DNA of 32,000 nt from an uncultured bacterium (GTDB lineage: Bacteria > Auribacterota > JACPWU01), in assembly GCA_964640155.1 (NCBI GenBank), contig CAZXEQ010000005.1:150001-182000 (forward strand), written 5' to 3'. Both the position numbers and the translations under genes were made by a program. Below are positions 1 to 15,825 of this stretch, one piece after another; the first letter of the stretch is position 1; each line of letters begins with the position of its first letter. A model generated the notes under the pieces. That model was not told the origin of the DNA, ran no database searches, and saw only the letters and a program-made list of their open reading frames with translations.

Positions 1-575
1 TTTTACAAAATCTAATCTATCTCGATCATCCATGGCCACACTATTGCCTAAAATAAAAGACATCATCCCCAAATCTTGTCCATGTCCAAAAATTAGTAAT
101 TTCTGTCCCTGATGCCGAGCTTCAAGTTGCTCATAAACATGTTCTGATCGTCTTAAGGCTTCAATTCCAGATTCAGAAACACCAGGAGCCTCCACTCCAA
201 AGTCTTCACCAGAATTAAAACGCTCATATAACTCTGGATTTGTCTGACCGCATTCTTCTTTAGTCTTACCACTCCAGTCTCCCCATGCCATTTCTTTTAA
301 ATTCGGTTCTATGTGAATGGGAAGTTCTACGCCTACCCTTTCTCTGACCAAATCCTGAAAAACTTGTGCTGTTGCATACGCACAATTTAAAGGACTGGAG
401 TAAATAATAGGCAAGCGGCCCGCACGAATATCTTTTTCATATTTGAAGTATAAATTCTCTGCAATTTGTTTGGCCTGCTGTTGACCTACATCATTTAGAG
501 AAATATCCACTCCCCCTGGATAACGATTCTCTATATTCCAATCTGTCTGACCATGAGGAATCAAAGTATAACTAT
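1..575 (-). other. Histidine phosphatase (phosphoglycerate-mutase-like) domain of giant B, truncated by the window edge
   Basis: Translation YTLIPHGQTDWN...ISLNDVGQQQAKQIA...IIYSSPLNCAYATAQ...LKEMAWGDWSG...APGVSES...LLIFGHGQ follows the RHGxTxWN ... SSPLxRAxxTA ... ExxxGxWEG ... GES ... SHG layout of the histidine phosphatase superfamily. Confidence 0.7.
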
Positions 576-15300: not shown

Positions 15301-15825
15301 TGTTTGTCTGAAGGCCTTAAAATTTTCAAGATAAATTTCAGAATTTTCTACACCCATCAAATCAATTTTGCTTTCAGGGCCTTCTGAAATCACTGCAAAT
15401 TCTGCACCTGTTAAATACCCTTCATTCAAAAATTTCTTAGCTACATTTTTGCGAATATTCGAATCTGGAAAAGATTGATAGAGAAGTGTTCTTAGGGGCC
15501 CTTCAGCACCTTCTACAAAAACCTGATCAATTCCTTTTTGATTCAAAGCTAAAATACTTTGAGCAATTTTTTCTTGAGCCTCAGGCTGGCAATGTAAATC
15601 TCGTATTAGAAAAATATTATTCTTCGAATTACTTTGATAGTTTTTGCCTTGTATCATTCCAGGCAATGAAAGATCTTTAAAAGAGATTGGTAAAGAGGCA
15701 GAAAAAGAAGGACTGGCTTCTAATGTAGAAACTACTCCGACATTTAAAATAAGATTAAAAACGAGAAATGGAACAAGAACCATTTTCAACCATCGATAGC
15801 TTTGTGAGGGACACAAAAATGACAT
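6331..15825 (-). CDS. Giant multidomain protein A (3164 aa): signal peptide, TraB/Tiki-like region, shared module, helical repeats, HExxH module, six 112-aa tandem repeats, Upf1-like SF1 helicase, unknown C-terminal tail
   Basis: Single uninterrupted ORF in the supplied track. The N-terminus (M15) MVLVPFLVFNLILNVGVVSTLEA resembles a signal peptide. Domain evidence is given in the sub-features. Confidence 0.9.
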   Translation of the reverse strand: MSFLCPSQSYRWLKMVLVPFLVFNLILNVGVVSTLEASPSFSASLPISFKDLSLPGMIQGKNYQSNSKNNIFLIRDLHCQPEAQEKIAQSILALNQKGIDQVFVEGAEGPLRTLLYQSFPDSNIRKNVAKKFLNEGYLTGAEFAVISEGPESKIDLMGVENSEIYLENFKAFRQTRLLYQKLKDEIENFNQWLESIKKKSYSKKLLLLDQAQKGMSSNKFSLEKIIALLEKADLDKLLKTNELWQLNTLQKEIDSAKVQKEYNELLQSFQNRLSREELQNVVRSSLEYRLGKLSTVKHFSFLKNIFEEKISKNSFKRQYPTLEIWIDFLQQQGKIDFDKAHLNLSQLIDEQIKKQADQEKVENIVKINEQWHLLQKWINLELSRKELVETVEKSPQELFRQLGFMLTSLKSPSFSKDWDLLIQEAQHFYELAQKRDQILLENALKNMNKAAQRTIILITGGFHTEGIQKLLEAKGISYTTWTPQVNGDISSDLYERIMMDEAYDLENVEFSEKRLVGHSSSEIQKMLQNPAPTGNIWAQIGEPKRPVLENMMADDLREGLAQGRSPRQIFEGWLSRIWDGLDEQEHTSLRTLLSQFVNFPEANASNPTQAKIWLDMMNKAFGEDSVLTQIVREYFESLEGQKKDELASVVVPLVVMSDLTRALIRDLESAAAEDEKLKDIVQTISDFLETFKNDKWLRIPRGKEVFIGLVKSGVITEKNLAEFLNWMDRIAQLRPASSSAVIEMLQFISVTFDSYPEQMQNSLLETLEKIADRSWTNNWKTKRVFSLLVARGIVAQVLYSRTLNLDLIVEVIDQIDANHDSFKDKRFEVLGSLPEDINPGNKDWFLHVVEVISREPWISGPLALDAFSSLLESGAKTEENLENSRNWFQGLSKPVSRKTMNRYRVINRLVTQGALTAENIPKMRELLKDVIDQEWLGSLWGPQFFAVLFSKGVLQKEEDIQILSRVMNRFDLKGKDAPLVYQGLEALLLGDIIRLENEKEIQSISQENLVDIGLLVMSDSFGYQDFARVEGIQDKTWTSVSQNPFLHLRIAYLKEEEVSDAYSLKDRVRALLLNHANAIVSYSSDLIQELADQTTNPYLLPGMISLRSKLRLKENEGRYAFSDLLKDLKVDESYKIEVLALMEEIGYRVDDKGFIITTIQLVTTIYRGSLEVDSQEAKYVTHAVTTALCHYGRKGGEAAATKGDEEVVAIGNKALHEVDYVLMNYEGRNDKKVDRGVSVAFSYENAIPQYTRKQIYLLEERSVLGLLADIQRRQEIERKEEEKLFELLNQVVKGRADESELENIITSIQASIEELRKVETNYYFQALHGYLDRDFFEGVKREYKQGEANEELIVQLTKEAQDRQLSRLLATRDDIKTPRYKQHLEQLDNRNKIWKERRLTLWGYLQFKNDMRKGTYEENKTIKIAHFSAEVNEGLAAPTEAEDAETYQALDGKNVTFTVTNGDIKFDESPELKRLEKAMGVGTDMSRDEFYAELGKIIRSRHRLQGIELTAGPFTLHFGSDRTQKEYRTLFGNHKTDGQYYINILAFLNIKDKTHRRASFLTGMSHETVHEFLKKSPIGEQPDEEILEKELAEEDARILQREIKQLNPFLFDLYGVIKPGALMKEVQYRKLEAKEARVDVLRQLRQLDDQSPTAFEPIEWITDTSAYGQVKFFLTDNKQKKTVILSTGIAKTGRAQVRRFYDEELKEWIYETRRVEGKAEEIVRQSRLVKEEGQNHWHFERFDRNKEKIIQQLKTQDARNKDVFKSLELTVDTDSKGLISFTWTDKEQQKTVNLSTGIAKEGRVQVRRFYDEELKEWIYETRRVEGDGEKQEEIVRQSRLVKEEGQGYWQFEVFDRYREKVIQQLKTQDAQNEDTFEPLEWTVETNSAGLVGFFWTDNEQRNEVYLSTGTGKKGQVQVRRFYDRDLKEWVYETQRVEGKGENKQEIIRQSRLVKEEGKNFWKFEIFDRYKEKVIQQLKAQDAKNKDAFEVMEWTVDTDSAGLVGFFWRDNAHIEKVRLSTGVNKKGQVKVRRFYDEDLKEWVYETRRVEGKGENQKEIVKQSRLVKEEGKNFWKLEMFDRNKEKVIQHLKAQDAQNKDKFEPLQWETESDNYGQINFSLIDNGQKKRARLATGTMKKGRVQASRFYDEDLKEWVYETRRVEGKGENQKEIVKQSRLVKEEGKNFWKLEIFDRNKEKVIQQLKAQDVQNKDGFEPLEWKTEVYSGGRVHFSWTDDGKHKKAILSTGIGKPGKVKVRRFYDETLEEWIYETQREVEGRMITRLSRLIKSPIHGHWMLRVMKAQGYSSPGLVEQALEDRVRRGLTNDSWALLNGKEPNESLLEAARRFGIALPEISILDEEYNREAKVTSLKLPGEVGHSSQSKELKNVLGELKEMVEGKEKELGNNVALRAIQIERLRAIGGKAQVRNGLSRATRELLGLEKPETINKEEISEEKSKIQIQDERVAQDPFQSNAVRMALHPRTKVALIQGGAGSGKTATVVEIAQQLVKQGKRVLVVSRTNLAVDNVLERLDRNKVPILRAYSRGEEGRGDDRVIESLRKYQVWNQAREDGYNGEGMKEFKKRKTNGKGYVVGVTTDSMYRVPETADQEYDVVIIDEAGTVNEIDTVLAGAKAKEKIILAGDHLQLEPFIDEAAMKGQTDIYRAMIQESGMARRWNKGQAQTFLARNYRSHPVISVMIGRLIYNKMMVPKTWRMMEEDTVRRVDVPMKKASGNEEARGTSYQNTEEANKCLEEYKRALASGYRSEQISILSAYQSQVELIREKIRDYLIRERKMKKDEAQAIVESQIGTVDSYQGRENAVVIYSFVRSNPDPSKVGFVANINRLNVALSRASDRLILVGDMKTLRNAKHTEQDRSFAILFKEKLEAEGLEAFDRFWTEQVVQGYYTLREAIQKKNKSLEREIGQGTKLTLDAEKIKKIEEYLIMKDRSKEKAMGEEDYHLLEELHERVLRGQRRIDLTEGDYEYYLRDLNELSNTFPELLSYDEEKGTLQIHWLKDESGQSVELELNQIELKEEKGTEATPLSTMNSLEVLKGEIRTFLASYRQASNSFDFAGAIAEGARRADAILDGSVRDQFLKELTHQLAEILKSKLDSAQASVEALDRALEAYQPLSDTAISLKKSVLKAVSGLPRSVPHVLRSPAEIEVAA
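7250..8400 (-). other. Superfamily 1B Upf1-like (DNA2/NAM7-type) helicase domain of giant A
   Basis: All core motifs are present in order. I GGAGSGKT, Ia VVSRTNLAVDNVLERL, II VVIIDEAGTVNE, III ILAGDHLQLEPF, IV LARNYRSHPVI, V TVDSYQGRENAVVIYSFVRSN, VI GFVANINRLNVALSRASDRLILVGD. Confidence 0.85.
8917..10863 (-). repeat. In-frame tandem array of six protein repeats (about 336 nt / 112 aa each) inside giant A
   Basis: Units start on the minus strand at 10863, 10536, 10200, 9864, 9528 and 9192. Each begins FEPxEW and contains LSTGxxKxGxVxVRRFYDExLKEWxYETRRVEGK...IVRQSRLVKEEGxNxWxFExFDRxKEKVIQQLKxQDAxNKD. Unit 1 is 109 aa and the last unit diverges in its second half. Confidence 0.95.
10960..11640 (-). 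other. HExxH (zincin-like) module of giant A, paralogous to 665-1430
   Basis: HETVH codons are at 11130-11116. The flanking sequence is conserved with giant B (see feature 665-1430), including a downstream acidic stretch EEDARILQREI that could supply a third metal ligand. Confidence 0.5.
12815..13735 (-). other. About six degenerate alpha-helical repeats in giant A
   Basis: A recurring pattern hxxLhxxGhhxxENh appears in EVFIGLVKSGVITEKNLAEFL, RVFSLLVARGIVAQVLYS, LDAFSSLLESGAKTEENLENS, YRVINRLVTQGALTAENIPKM, QFFAVLFSKGVLQKEEDIQIL and VYQGLEALLLGDIIRLENEKE, spaced about 50-70 aa apart. Confidence 0.4.
13905..14227 (-). other. N-proximal module shared by both giants (giant A copy), function unknown
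   Basis: See feature 5675-6000 for the gap-free alignment, about 50 of 84 positions identical by hand count. Confidence 0.8.
14325..15633 (-). other. Possible TraB/Tiki/ChaN/erythromycin-esterase-superfamily-like domain with a long helical insert, in giant A
   Basis: IFLIRDLHCQPEAQEKIAQSILALNQKGIDQVFVEGA resembles the N-terminal GTxH...E motif followed by VxVE. RTIILITGGFHTEGIQKLLEAKG (GGFH at 14448-14437) resembles the C-terminal vvGAGHlxGi motif of that superfamily. This is a motif-level resemblance only. Confidence 0.35.

Follow-up and report, generated by a model that had tools for sequence, protein, structure and literature searches.

Tandem giant genes of an uncultured bacterium belong to a mosaic megaprotein family with signal-peptide-like N-termini and a recurrent C-terminal tail

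Here, we examined two adjacent giant genes, A and B, on the minus strand of a 32,000-nucleotide stretch of DNA from an uncultured bacterium (GenBank assembly GCA_964640155.1, contig CAZXEQ010000005.1, positions 150,001 to 182,000; hereafter, the window). Our analysis revealed that A and B are two intact tandem paralogues, each with its own promoter-like site, and sequence comparison places them in a large family of mosaic megaproteins encoded in Omnitrophota, Auribacterota, Chlamydiota-like bacteria and allied metagenome-assembled genomes (MAGs). A carries all the elements by which the family is defined, namely, a signal-peptide-like segment, a conserved N-terminal domain (the head) and a short C-terminal tail. 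B has the signal-like segment and the tail and, despite the lack of a head, belongs to the family because of this tail and of a module, m112, that it shares with A. An initial interpretation made from the letters alone (the sequence-only reading) recognised no known architecture in this pair, a statement that no longer holds, given that A is a member of a family with 509 loci and that giant multi-enzyme proteins with signal peptides have already been published from Omnitrophota. We consider it an evenly balanced proposition that A and B are exported multi-enzyme effectors or surface megaproteins that act in or on another cell.

Two intact tandem paralogues

Gene A (6331..15825, minus strand) is a complete open reading frame (ORF) of 3164 amino acids (aa), and a protein identical to its product (P0001) is encoded on a 186-kb NCBI contig. 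Gene B occupies 1..6186 of the window on the same strand, which covers its first 2062 aa when counted from the ATG at 6186, whereas the C-terminal ~790 aa lie past the left end. The frame of B is open from 6231 to base 1, with ATG codons at 6186, 6180 and 6150, and a ribosome-binding-like run (GGAAGAAGG) precedes the first of these. The end of B, which was sought beyond the window, was found on an independent Logan contig, L003, where the full-length protein (P0087) comprises 2843 aa from the 6150 start or 2855 aa from the 6186 start; downstream of B, this contig carries a convergent mgtE followed by bactofilin, ahpC and phosphonate genes.

The placement of the two genes is reproduced by short-read assemblies from two sequencing runs: contigs L001 and L003, from one run, are 99.99-100% identical to the window over 10705-18941 and 1-9256, respectively, and contig L002, from the other, over 15823-17355. 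Because these independent contigs match the window, frameshifts and chimeras, both raised as potential pitfalls when the genes were first noticed, are excluded outside a repeat array at 9174-10812. No stop interrupts the 3164 and 2062 codons, and the frames remain unbroken over 9.5 kb and 6.2 kb of DNA with 38% GC. The candidate promoters proposed for each gene were both recovered as matches to a sigma-70-like consensus: TTGAAA-17-TATATT ahead of A (15892..15920, minus strand; 10 of 12 positions) and TTGAAA-17-TATAAT ahead of B (6220..6248, minus strand; 11 of 12), each with a TG extended -10. No terminator-like site was found between A and B.

The paralogy of A and B is borne out by three modules, rather than the two originally noticed, which are colinear in the two proteins and separated by unrelated stretches. 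The m112 module (A524-635 against B54-165, in window numbering) is 56% identical; the HExxH module, initially described as ~230 aa long, is 40% identical (A1423-1630 against B1619-1848) and contains SHExVHEF in both proteins; and the C-terminal module, which lies outside the window's view of B, is 48% identical over 71 aa (A3049-3119 against B2725-2792). In A, the C-terminal module (SFDFAGAIAEGA...FLKEL.HQLA) maps to 6451..6705 (minus strand; aa 3041-3125), and an HMM (hidden Markov model) of it matched A and B only. The m112 module had been taken for an N-proximal element of ~105 aa common to both proteins, and common it is; however, only in B (5677..6051, minus strand; P0087 aa 34-158) does it directly follow the signal peptide, whereas in A (13906..14280, minus strand; aa 516-640) it sits behind the head of ~470 aa, as it does in the closest relatives of A, P0003-P0008.

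A large family with variable cargo

A search with A retrieved 79 giant proteins of 1.8-5.5 thousand residues (kaa), all of which match an HMM of the head and have only the first ~500 aa of A in common, always at their own N-terminus. Where the source is named, these proteins come from Omnitrophota, Ca. Theseobacter exili (Auribacterota), Chlamydiota and Elusimicrobia. A scan of species-representative genomes with a single pattern derived from seven sequences, [IVM]L[IV]TGGFHT, returned 509 encoded relatives, often several per genome; the best match is 42% identical, so that the genome of the window itself is not one of these representatives. Among the best 80 of the 509, 37 are attributed by title to Omnitrophota and 16 to Auribacterota, and the others are MAGs under the labels Planctomycetia, Actinomycetes, Elusimicrobia or just 'bacterium'. 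At the related loci, giant ORFs often lie in tandem on one strand, as A and B do. Viral origin was considered and rejected, as a scan of viral contigs with the head yielded no relatives.

Behind the conserved head, the cargo is highly varied and includes domains that score well above the Pfam thresholds: phosphoglycerate kinase (PGK) with fructose-bisphosphatase (FBPase), cytidylate kinase, phosphoglucomutase/phosphomannomutase (PGM/PMM), glycogen synthase, dehydroquinate synthase, PEP-utilising enzymes, UbiB, M48, HD, metallophosphatases, radical SAM with GNAT, RNase III, Lon, RelA/SpoT and others. At one locus of a Chlamydiota MAG (GCA_042567415.1; L084, 1-23811), two family members, namely, a 2519-aa protein with a Pkinase domain and P0002, which is at least 4604 aa long and contains RelA_SpoT and a pair of HExxH modules, flank yajC-secDF, an adjacency that may be coincidental. 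The family was not described as such in the literature that we searched.

A TIKI-like head

The head of A (14269..15684, minus strand; aa 48-519) appears to combine a TIKI-superfamily-like alpha/beta core with a helical insert of ~290 aa. Its polar set consists of D76-x-H78, E105, R435 and H463; in an alignment of A with 75 homologues, H78, E105 and R435 are invariant (100%), D76 is kept in 88% and H463 in 97% of the 76 sequences, and the run G460-G461-F462-H463 in 95-99%. The AlphaFold2 model of the head (pLDDT 87) consists of a small strand core, with the conserved residues at strand ends, and the insert, and its best Foldseek match in the PDB is the type III effector HopBA1 (5T09; probability 0.96, E 0.07). 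HopBA1, together with ChaN, Bcr135, PMT and RRSP, has been assigned to the TIKI-superfamily folds in the structural study of RRSP, in which the set of two His, two Glu and a conserved Arg is E3900-x-H3902, E3930, R4001 and H4030 (PMC6254334). The local spacings are close to each other, H-27-E and R-28-H in the head against H-28-E and R-29-H in RRSP.

Like the members of the TIKI superfamily (Tiki, TraB/PrgY/GumN, ChaN, erythromycin esterases, RRSP, PMT-C1C2 and HopBA1), several of which are extracytoplasmic or toxin/effector domains, the head would possess a small parallel-sheet alpha/beta core with an acid-x-His, a Glu, an Arg and a His at strand ends. It differs from them in the ~290-aa helical insert between the Glu and the Arg, in the lack of Pfam-level membership and in that it always heads a megaprotein. 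The early recognition of a TraB/Tiki-like region in A is therefore upheld by the residue set, the HopBA1 fold match and sub-threshold Pfam matches as a likely relationship to the superfamily with an intact catalytic-type set, not as membership in a curated family; the head is probably catalytic. A profile of the head found no solved relative in the PDB, and the calmodulin/centrin-like matches that it gave (E 0.02-0.1) cover the helical insert alone and were rejected as noise.

A recurrent tail at the C-terminus

The last 20 aa of A (6334..6393, minus strand; ...PAEIEVAA) resemble those of B, in that A ends in ...EIEVAA and B in ...EVETAA (L003, 11560-11635). Tails ending in [AS]A or [AS][LVI], with hydrophobic residues fixed at -15 and -5, were present in 58 of the 79 family members; among the controls, they were seen in 1 of 120 homologues of PolX and in 25 of 318 ORFs from the neighbourhood. 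The register of the tail is fixed, with L or I at -19, L, I or V at -15 (86% hydrophobic), A at -9, Q at -8, A at -6, I, V or T at -5, A or S at -2, and A, sometimes L or V, at -1. It is also borne by upstream tandem partners at other loci and by some proteins without a head. The tail may be a sorting, secretion or degradation signal.

N-termini and membrane topology

The hydrophobic, signal-peptide-like N-termini first noticed on both proteins were confirmed with hydropathy and AxA rules, by which all signal peptides were judged here. That of A (15715..15825, minus strand; aa 1-37) reads MSFLCPSQSYRWLK / MVLVPFLVFNLILNVGVVS / TLEA, then S, and its Kyte-Doolittle hydropathy reaches 2.24-2.36 at aa 15-33, depending on the span averaged, between basic residues on the N-terminal side and L-E-A on the other; that of B (6070..6186, minus strand) ends in ...MTKALSICLSLTFFFDFSGIDLKNAFA, followed by DSS, contains A-F-A and has a hydropathy of 1.5-1.65. 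By a crude screen, 70 of the 79 members begin with a basic n-region and then a stretch of uncharged hydrophobic residues, generally 9-17 long (mode 13), and AxA-like sites were common; most of the remainder are truncated sequences or, like A, carry N or P in the core.

Neither A nor B has a convincing internal membrane helix, as judged by hydropathy and by reading of the sequence; the one candidate, A646-664 (ASVVVPLVVMSD), was rejected because it is interrupted by P, S and D and is not long enough for a membrane helix. Depending on the threshold, 13-34 of the 79 members have a signal peptide only, and such proteins carry PGK/FBPase, cytidylate kinase, PGM or PEP-utilising domains. The paradox pointed out for A and B, an export signal on enzymes of the cytoplasmic type, thus recurs across the family, in which the pairing of predicted export signals with ATP-dependent enzymes is systematic. 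In three close relatives (P0007 aa 708-805, P0008 aa 685-780 and P0061 aa 655-766), two hydrophobic stretches of ~40 residues that A and B lack directly follow m112; these are similar to the bilobed hydrophobic domains of chlamydial Inc proteins.

Conserved domains without known relatives

Between the m112 module and the HExxH module, A contains a helical-repeat-like region (12769..13908, minus strand; aa 640-1019) with a recurring G-x-h-x-x-E-N-h unit and no Pfam match, and a domain that we denote preH (11587..12771, minus strand; aa 1019-1413). The latter has invariant H, Y, H-E-x-D, K and E residues within the conserved motifs YRGSAE.D...YLTHA.TTA..HYA.KGGE, AFHEFD and EYARKRT and looks like an uncharacterised enzyme domain. 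The HExxH module itself maps to 10945..11586 in A (minus strand; aa 1414-1627), where G-x-S-H-E-x-x-H-E is followed by E-D-A ~25 residues on, and to 652..1356 in B (minus strand; P0087 aa 1599-1833), where it was delimited by its identity to A and by the HMM. Across 14 sequences of this module, there is no variation at R, G, H, E, H and E and hardly any at a D ~25 residues later.

The HExxH module is real, as the sequence-only reading had it, and rare. A profile search with A1019-1660 against 1.84 billion representative proteins found 60 relatives in total, which split into ~45 preH clusters and ~12 HExxH clusters, the latter with up to three copies per protein; most are 1-7.5 kaa long, the shorter ones being probably fragments, and five carry the head. 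Scans of JGI metagenomes with the HExxH alignment and with B gave no relatives, and profiles of HExxH and preH had no match in the PDB or Pfam. The AlphaFold2 model of A1019-1660, built from 4 sequences, has a pLDDT of 54 overall and of 70-90 in the HExxH part, where the predicted secondary structure is compatible with a sheet and then two helices, as might be expected of a zincin metallopeptidase, in which a small sheet precedes the HExxH helix and the next helix supplies a third ligand; Foldseek found no match for this model, just designed helical bundles and methyltransferase noise. Repeated HExxH modules, three in P0210 (5912 aa) and two in P0002, lie 800-2200 residues apart, a spacing that would suit an internal processing or boundary role.

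Downstream of its HExxH module, A contains the six 112-aa tandem repeats that had been noticed from the sequence alone (8932..10836, minus strand; aa 1664-2298; the last one partial), which were recovered both as six HMM matches and by Tandem Repeats Finder (period 336, window 9174-10812, 4.9 copies, 78% nucleotide matches). Both short-read contigs end inside the array, so that only a single assembly attests to the number of copies. Relatives of the repeat outside A were absent from the HMM and other searches run, and Pfam found nothing below E 0.01 in the repeat, in m112 or in the unassigned segments of A and B.

Recognisable enzyme domains

Most of each protein lacks recognisable motifs, as was evident from the outset: Pfam domains cover ~13% of A and ~12% of B. 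The best-defined domain is a Upf1/IGHMBP2-like superfamily 1B (SF1B) helicase that follows the repeat array in A (7225..8427, minus strand; aa 2467-2867). Its identification is secured by the Pfam domains AAA_11 and AAA_12 (77 and 121 bits, the cut-off being 27), by matches to Upf1, NAM7 and IGHMBP2 in the PDB (E 1e-23) and by an intact Walker A motif (GGAGSGKT) and motif II (VVIIDEAG). The same region matches the PADLOC profiles MkoA (1.4e-57, limited to the core, aa 2438-2878) and MkoC (3.5e-20), and A matches the NCBIfam PLuB helicase-like model (6e-26).

In B, the histidine phosphatase predicted from the letters (76..564, minus strand; P0087 aa 1863-2040) scores 106.6 bits with Pfam His_Phos_1, against a cut-off of 21.7, and is most similar to branch 1 enzymes of the PhoE/PspA type (PDB 1EBB and 1H2E, E 4e-13), yet its motif is PHG instead of RHG, such that the catalytic His and a later GHG are kept and the phosphate-binding Arg is lost. 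The CheR-type S-adenosylmethionine (SAM) methyltransferase-like domain (3457..4002, minus strand) was recovered marginally, with 29.0 bits for Pfam CheR (PF01739) against a cut-off of 27; Methyltransf_23 also matches this region below its own cut-off, and CheR_N was not found in B by Pfam. A second region resembling class I methyltransferases, at P0087 aa ~2540-2700 (VLDVATGKG ... LLKPGGNLL), gave a sub-threshold match to Ubie_methyltran (E 0.025). For the kinase-like region (5146..5598, minus strand; P0087 aa ~185-335), the order and spacing of the motifs (GGTVGD, YVVK, K211, E232, D306-x-K308-x-x-H311 and D326) do resemble those of a protein kinase, with H in place of N in the loop, but Pfam and PDB sequence searches gave no match to support the original assignment.

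Genomic context and host

The GC content is flat across the window (0.35-0.43) and the neighbours of A and B are housekeeping genes (PNP, TilS, GT2, GlnK-AmtB, a GAF histidine kinase, Def, ACT, HAD, PolX and MFS), in agreement with the first description of the locus. The PolX protein is 73-75% identical to proteins of 'Chlamydiae bacterium' MAGs, compared with ~60% to all others, and by this similarity the host looks Chlamydiota-like, within the Planctomycetes-Verrucomicrobia-Chlamydiae (PVC) group. In a related species (L085, PolX 83% identical), synteny is kept from the MFS gene to P-II/glnK-amtB and then breaks, a discoidin-domain ORF of >998 aa lying where the window has GT2, the tRNA genes, tilS, PNP, A and B, so that this comparison is uninformative on A and B. 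Exact-sequence look-ups returned no record for A (in three forms), P0003 or P0009.

Two tRNA genes with CAT anticodons (18892-18965 and 19063-19134, plus strand) adjoin tilS (16836-18299), ~3 kb upstream of A; one of the two may correspond to tRNA-Ile2, the substrate of TilS. The glnK (P-II)-amtB pair lies at 20161-22041 (minus strand), and a SAM riboswitch (RF00162, 77 bits; 30631-30754, plus strand) adjoins the MFS transporter gene, which is on the opposite strand.

Discussion

The layout that we propose for the family comprises a Sec-type signal peptide, a TIKI-like head of ~470 aa, 1-5 thousand residues of swappable modules and a C-terminal amphipathic stretch ending in ...[AS]A. The modules are of two kinds, conserved domains without known relatives (m112, preH and HExxH) and ordinary enzymes of the cytoplasmic type. 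The cargo of A is the Upf1-like helicase behind six fresh 112-aa repeats, and that of B the kinase-like region, two methyltransferase-like regions and the histidine phosphatase; of the common elements, B retains the signal peptide, m112, HExxH, the tail and the C-terminal module, the head being either lost or never present. The signal peptide would carry the unfolded chain across the inner membrane, and the tail would be recognised in a second step, in which the protein passes the outer membrane, is retained at the surface or is processed at its C-terminus. The resulting multi-enzyme effector would act in or on another cell, either host or prey, because the enzymes need ATP and SAM, which would be found only there, and the TIKI-like and HExxH modules, as putative hydrolases, would process the chain or attack targets. 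The sequence-only reading had left two options open, giant effectors or surface megaproteins on the one hand and a membrane-anchored intracellular defence module on the other. The former fits better because of the family-wide signal peptides, the TIKI-type head, the tail, the lack of internal transmembrane helices in A and B, and the lack of defence components beyond the match of the helicase core to MkoA. A bolder version holds that the signal peptide, the TIKI-like head and the ...[AS]A tail together mark a widespread, undescribed export class by which these host- or prey-associated bacteria deliver strings of metabolic and nucleic-acid enzymes into or onto other cells. The tail would then be a novel signal for secretion or sorting, processing enzymes would be built in as the TIKI-like and HExxH domains, and the whole would amount to a new format of effector delivery; this version is tentative and seems to us doubtful rather than probable.

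Several observations weigh against export of A and B as effectors or surface proteins. We know of no demonstrated route in these phyla by which a 3000-aa chain with folded-enzyme cargo would cross two membranes, and no known secretion-signal family matches the tail. Among 80 related loci, clustering of the ORFs within ±10 kb revealed no neighbour shared by more than 5 loci and no conserved transporter, chaperone or immunity gene, so that any export machinery would have to be encoded elsewhere. The hydrophobic core of A, at 19-21 residues, could be an uncleaved anchor, and 45-66 of the 79 members, depending on the threshold, have at least one internal hydrophobic segment, often at aa ~600-800, right after the head, so that parts of some members may be cytoplasmic. 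The Foldseek E-value of the head is no better than 0.07, and its TM-scores are depressed by the helical insert, which makes up most of the signal in the model; A itself has no match to PF01963, PF04187 or PF05139 at E<=0.1, and among 22 relatives of the head, PF04187 (ChaN/Tiki) weakly matched 4 (best 2e-4) and PF01963 (TraB) 1 (0.016), all below the cut-offs. Finally, some of the cargo may be inactive because of the PHG motif of the phosphatase and the H for N in the kinase-like loop.

The main rival, which we regard as rather unlikely but the most serious of the alternatives, is a membrane-tethered intracellular scaffold, with an N-terminal anchor, a periplasmic head as in PrgY or Tiki, and the enzymes forming a regulatory or metabolic hub in the cytoplasm. 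Tiki consists of an extracytoplasmic domain and a single membrane helix, and PrgY of an extracellular domain and several membrane helices, and many family members have internal hydrophobic segments; furthermore, a scaffold would explain the ATP- and SAM-dependent cargo without further transport, and the literature describes most giant proteins of Omnitrophota as anchored in the inner membrane. However, A and B are devoid of a convincing internal membrane helix, so that the whole chain would be outside after a Sec signal, and the basic residues ahead of the hydrophobic core imply the N-in, C-out orientation. Moreover, the signal-peptide-only members carry kinases and PGK all the same, and the scaffold assigns no role to the tail.

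Next, and improbable in our view, come surface or structural giants, such as adhesins or scaffolds of the envelope or matrix, whose enzyme-like domains would have decayed into binding modules. The signal peptide and the tail could serve to retain or sort such a protein, the long helical-repeat stretches and the fresh tandem repeats are adhesin-like, over 85% of either protein cannot be assigned to any enzyme family, and the altered motifs of the phosphatase and of the kinase-like region would be signs of decay. Nevertheless, motifs I and II of the helicase are intact, the cargo of the relatives scores far above the Pfam thresholds, and the invariance of polar residues in the HExxH, preH and TIKI-like domains, even between distant homologues, speaks for catalysis.

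An intracellular module for conflict or anti-phage defence, similar to Mokosh and centred on the Upf1-like helicase, with B as an accessory modifier (kinase, methylase and phosphatase), appears very unlikely. Such a role is evoked by the MkoA, MkoC and PLuB matches and by the fact that giant multi-domain NTPases are common in defence systems, and aa 2438-2878 of A are a genuine Upf1/IGHMBP2-type core with intact motifs. Yet the match is confined to this generic SF1B core, which matches eukaryotic Upf1 and IGHMBP2 equally well. In Mokosh, MkoA is accompanied by the phospholipase D (PLD) nuclease MkoB or fused in MkoC, whereas neither a PLD nuclease nor any further Mokosh component turned up in A, B or their neighbours, B has no PADLOC match, and the core of A is embedded in a megaprotein with an export-type signal. 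The family is defined by signal peptide, head and tail, with cargo that usually consists of metabolic enzymes, the flanks are housekeeping genes of uniform composition, and viral contigs hold no relatives. Finally, although the six-copy array is spanned by neither short-read contig and ORFs are fragmented at a few related loci, it is hardly credible that mis-assembly, fused gene calls or decaying pseudogenes produced A and B, given the agreement of assemblies from two runs on both repeat flanks, the stop-free codons, the conservation of both termini and the conserved domains all along the proteins.

Among known systems, effector or surface megaproteins of the kind proposed here have the closest published counterparts in the giant multi-enzyme or 'Archaeovorin'-type proteins of Omnitrophota (West-Roberts et al. 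2023, bioRxiv 10.1101/2023.11.21.568195; Nielsen & Lui 2026, bioRxiv 10.64898/2026.06.07.730766). Of the Omnitrophota proteins of at least 10 kaa, 94% have a signal peptide and/or transmembrane (TM) segments and ~9% a signal peptide only, and a 'multi-enzyme' class is included (bioRxiv 10.1101/2023.11.21.568195; 10.64898/2026.06.07.730766). The A/B family resembles them in the very long single ORFs, in the occurrence in Omnitrophota and PVC-allied lineages, in the N-terminal signal peptide, in the combination of unrelated enzyme Pfam domains on one chain (methyltransferases, kinases, HAD/NUDIX, glycogen-synthase-type glycosyltransferases, PGM and HATPase), in the large domain-less regions and in the signal-peptide-only minority; action at the cell surface or on prey has been proposed for those proteins, as it is here for A and B. 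By contrast, the Omnitrophota giants are at least 10 kaa long, with numerous TM segments and with SecA-DEAD-like, glycosyltransferase, glycoside hydrolase, peptidase and NUDIX domains, whereas A and B, at 3.2 and 2.8 kaa, have no TM helices and no SecA-DEAD, glycosyltransferase, glycoside hydrolase, NUDIX, C39/S8 peptidase or dockerin domains, and their host looks Chlamydiota. The kind of protein is already known, inasmuch as giant signal-peptide multi-enzyme proteins of Omnitrophota have been published; what is new here is the family defined by both termini, the inclusion of a Chlamydiota-like genome and the Upf1-like helicase cargo behind a fresh repeat array. Neither preprint on giant proteins, nor the other literature searched, mentions the TIKI-like head or the C-terminal tail.

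By analogy, the closest working counterpart of the proposed A and B would be the MARTX toxins, in which one secreted giant chain carries several unrelated enzymes that act in the cytoplasm together with a protease module; among the MARTX effectors, RRSP is a protease of the TIKI fold. In sequence, A and B are unrelated to these toxins: they contain no RTX/A-B-C repeats, CPD cysteine protease or any MARTX Pfam domain at E<=0.1, they have an N-terminal Sec-type signal rather than pure type I secretion, and no component of a type I secretion system (T1SS) was found among the neighbours in the window or on L003.

Two-signal exoproteins offer another parallel. Cargo of the type IX secretion system (T9SS) carries a signal peptide and a C-terminal domain (CTD), and TpsA/CdiA proteins have a signal peptide, an N-terminal TPS domain and a variable giant body; the T9SS CTD and the tails of HlyA-type T1SS substrates are conserved extreme C-terminal elements, and the T1SS tails end in small residues, too. 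The family of A would be similar to TpsA/CdiA in its conserved head right after the signal peptide and its variable body, and to T9SS and T1SS substrates in its conserved extreme C-terminal element, although the latter is a ~20-residue helix-plus-AA motif rather than a folded domain. Pfam detected no TPS, CTD or RTX domain in A or B, and no TpsB-like or ABC/membrane fusion protein (MFP) gene adjoins the related loci.

The multi-enzyme giants of Omnitrophota and PVC bacteria are among the largest unexplained gene classes of uncultured bacteria and have so far been catalogued by length and Pfam content. The locus described here gives a handle on them, with a TIKI-type head that is probably catalytic, a tail, tandem paralogues with swapped cargo, and a size of ~3 kaa that can be expressed and dissected, and m112, preH and HExxH are three conserved domains without known relatives whose invariant polar residues merit structural work. 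Should the tail prove to direct sorting, and the cargo to function inside other cells, there would be a reason for the export signals on helicases, kinases and glycolytic enzymes, and the phenomenon would reach into Chlamydiota-like bacteria.

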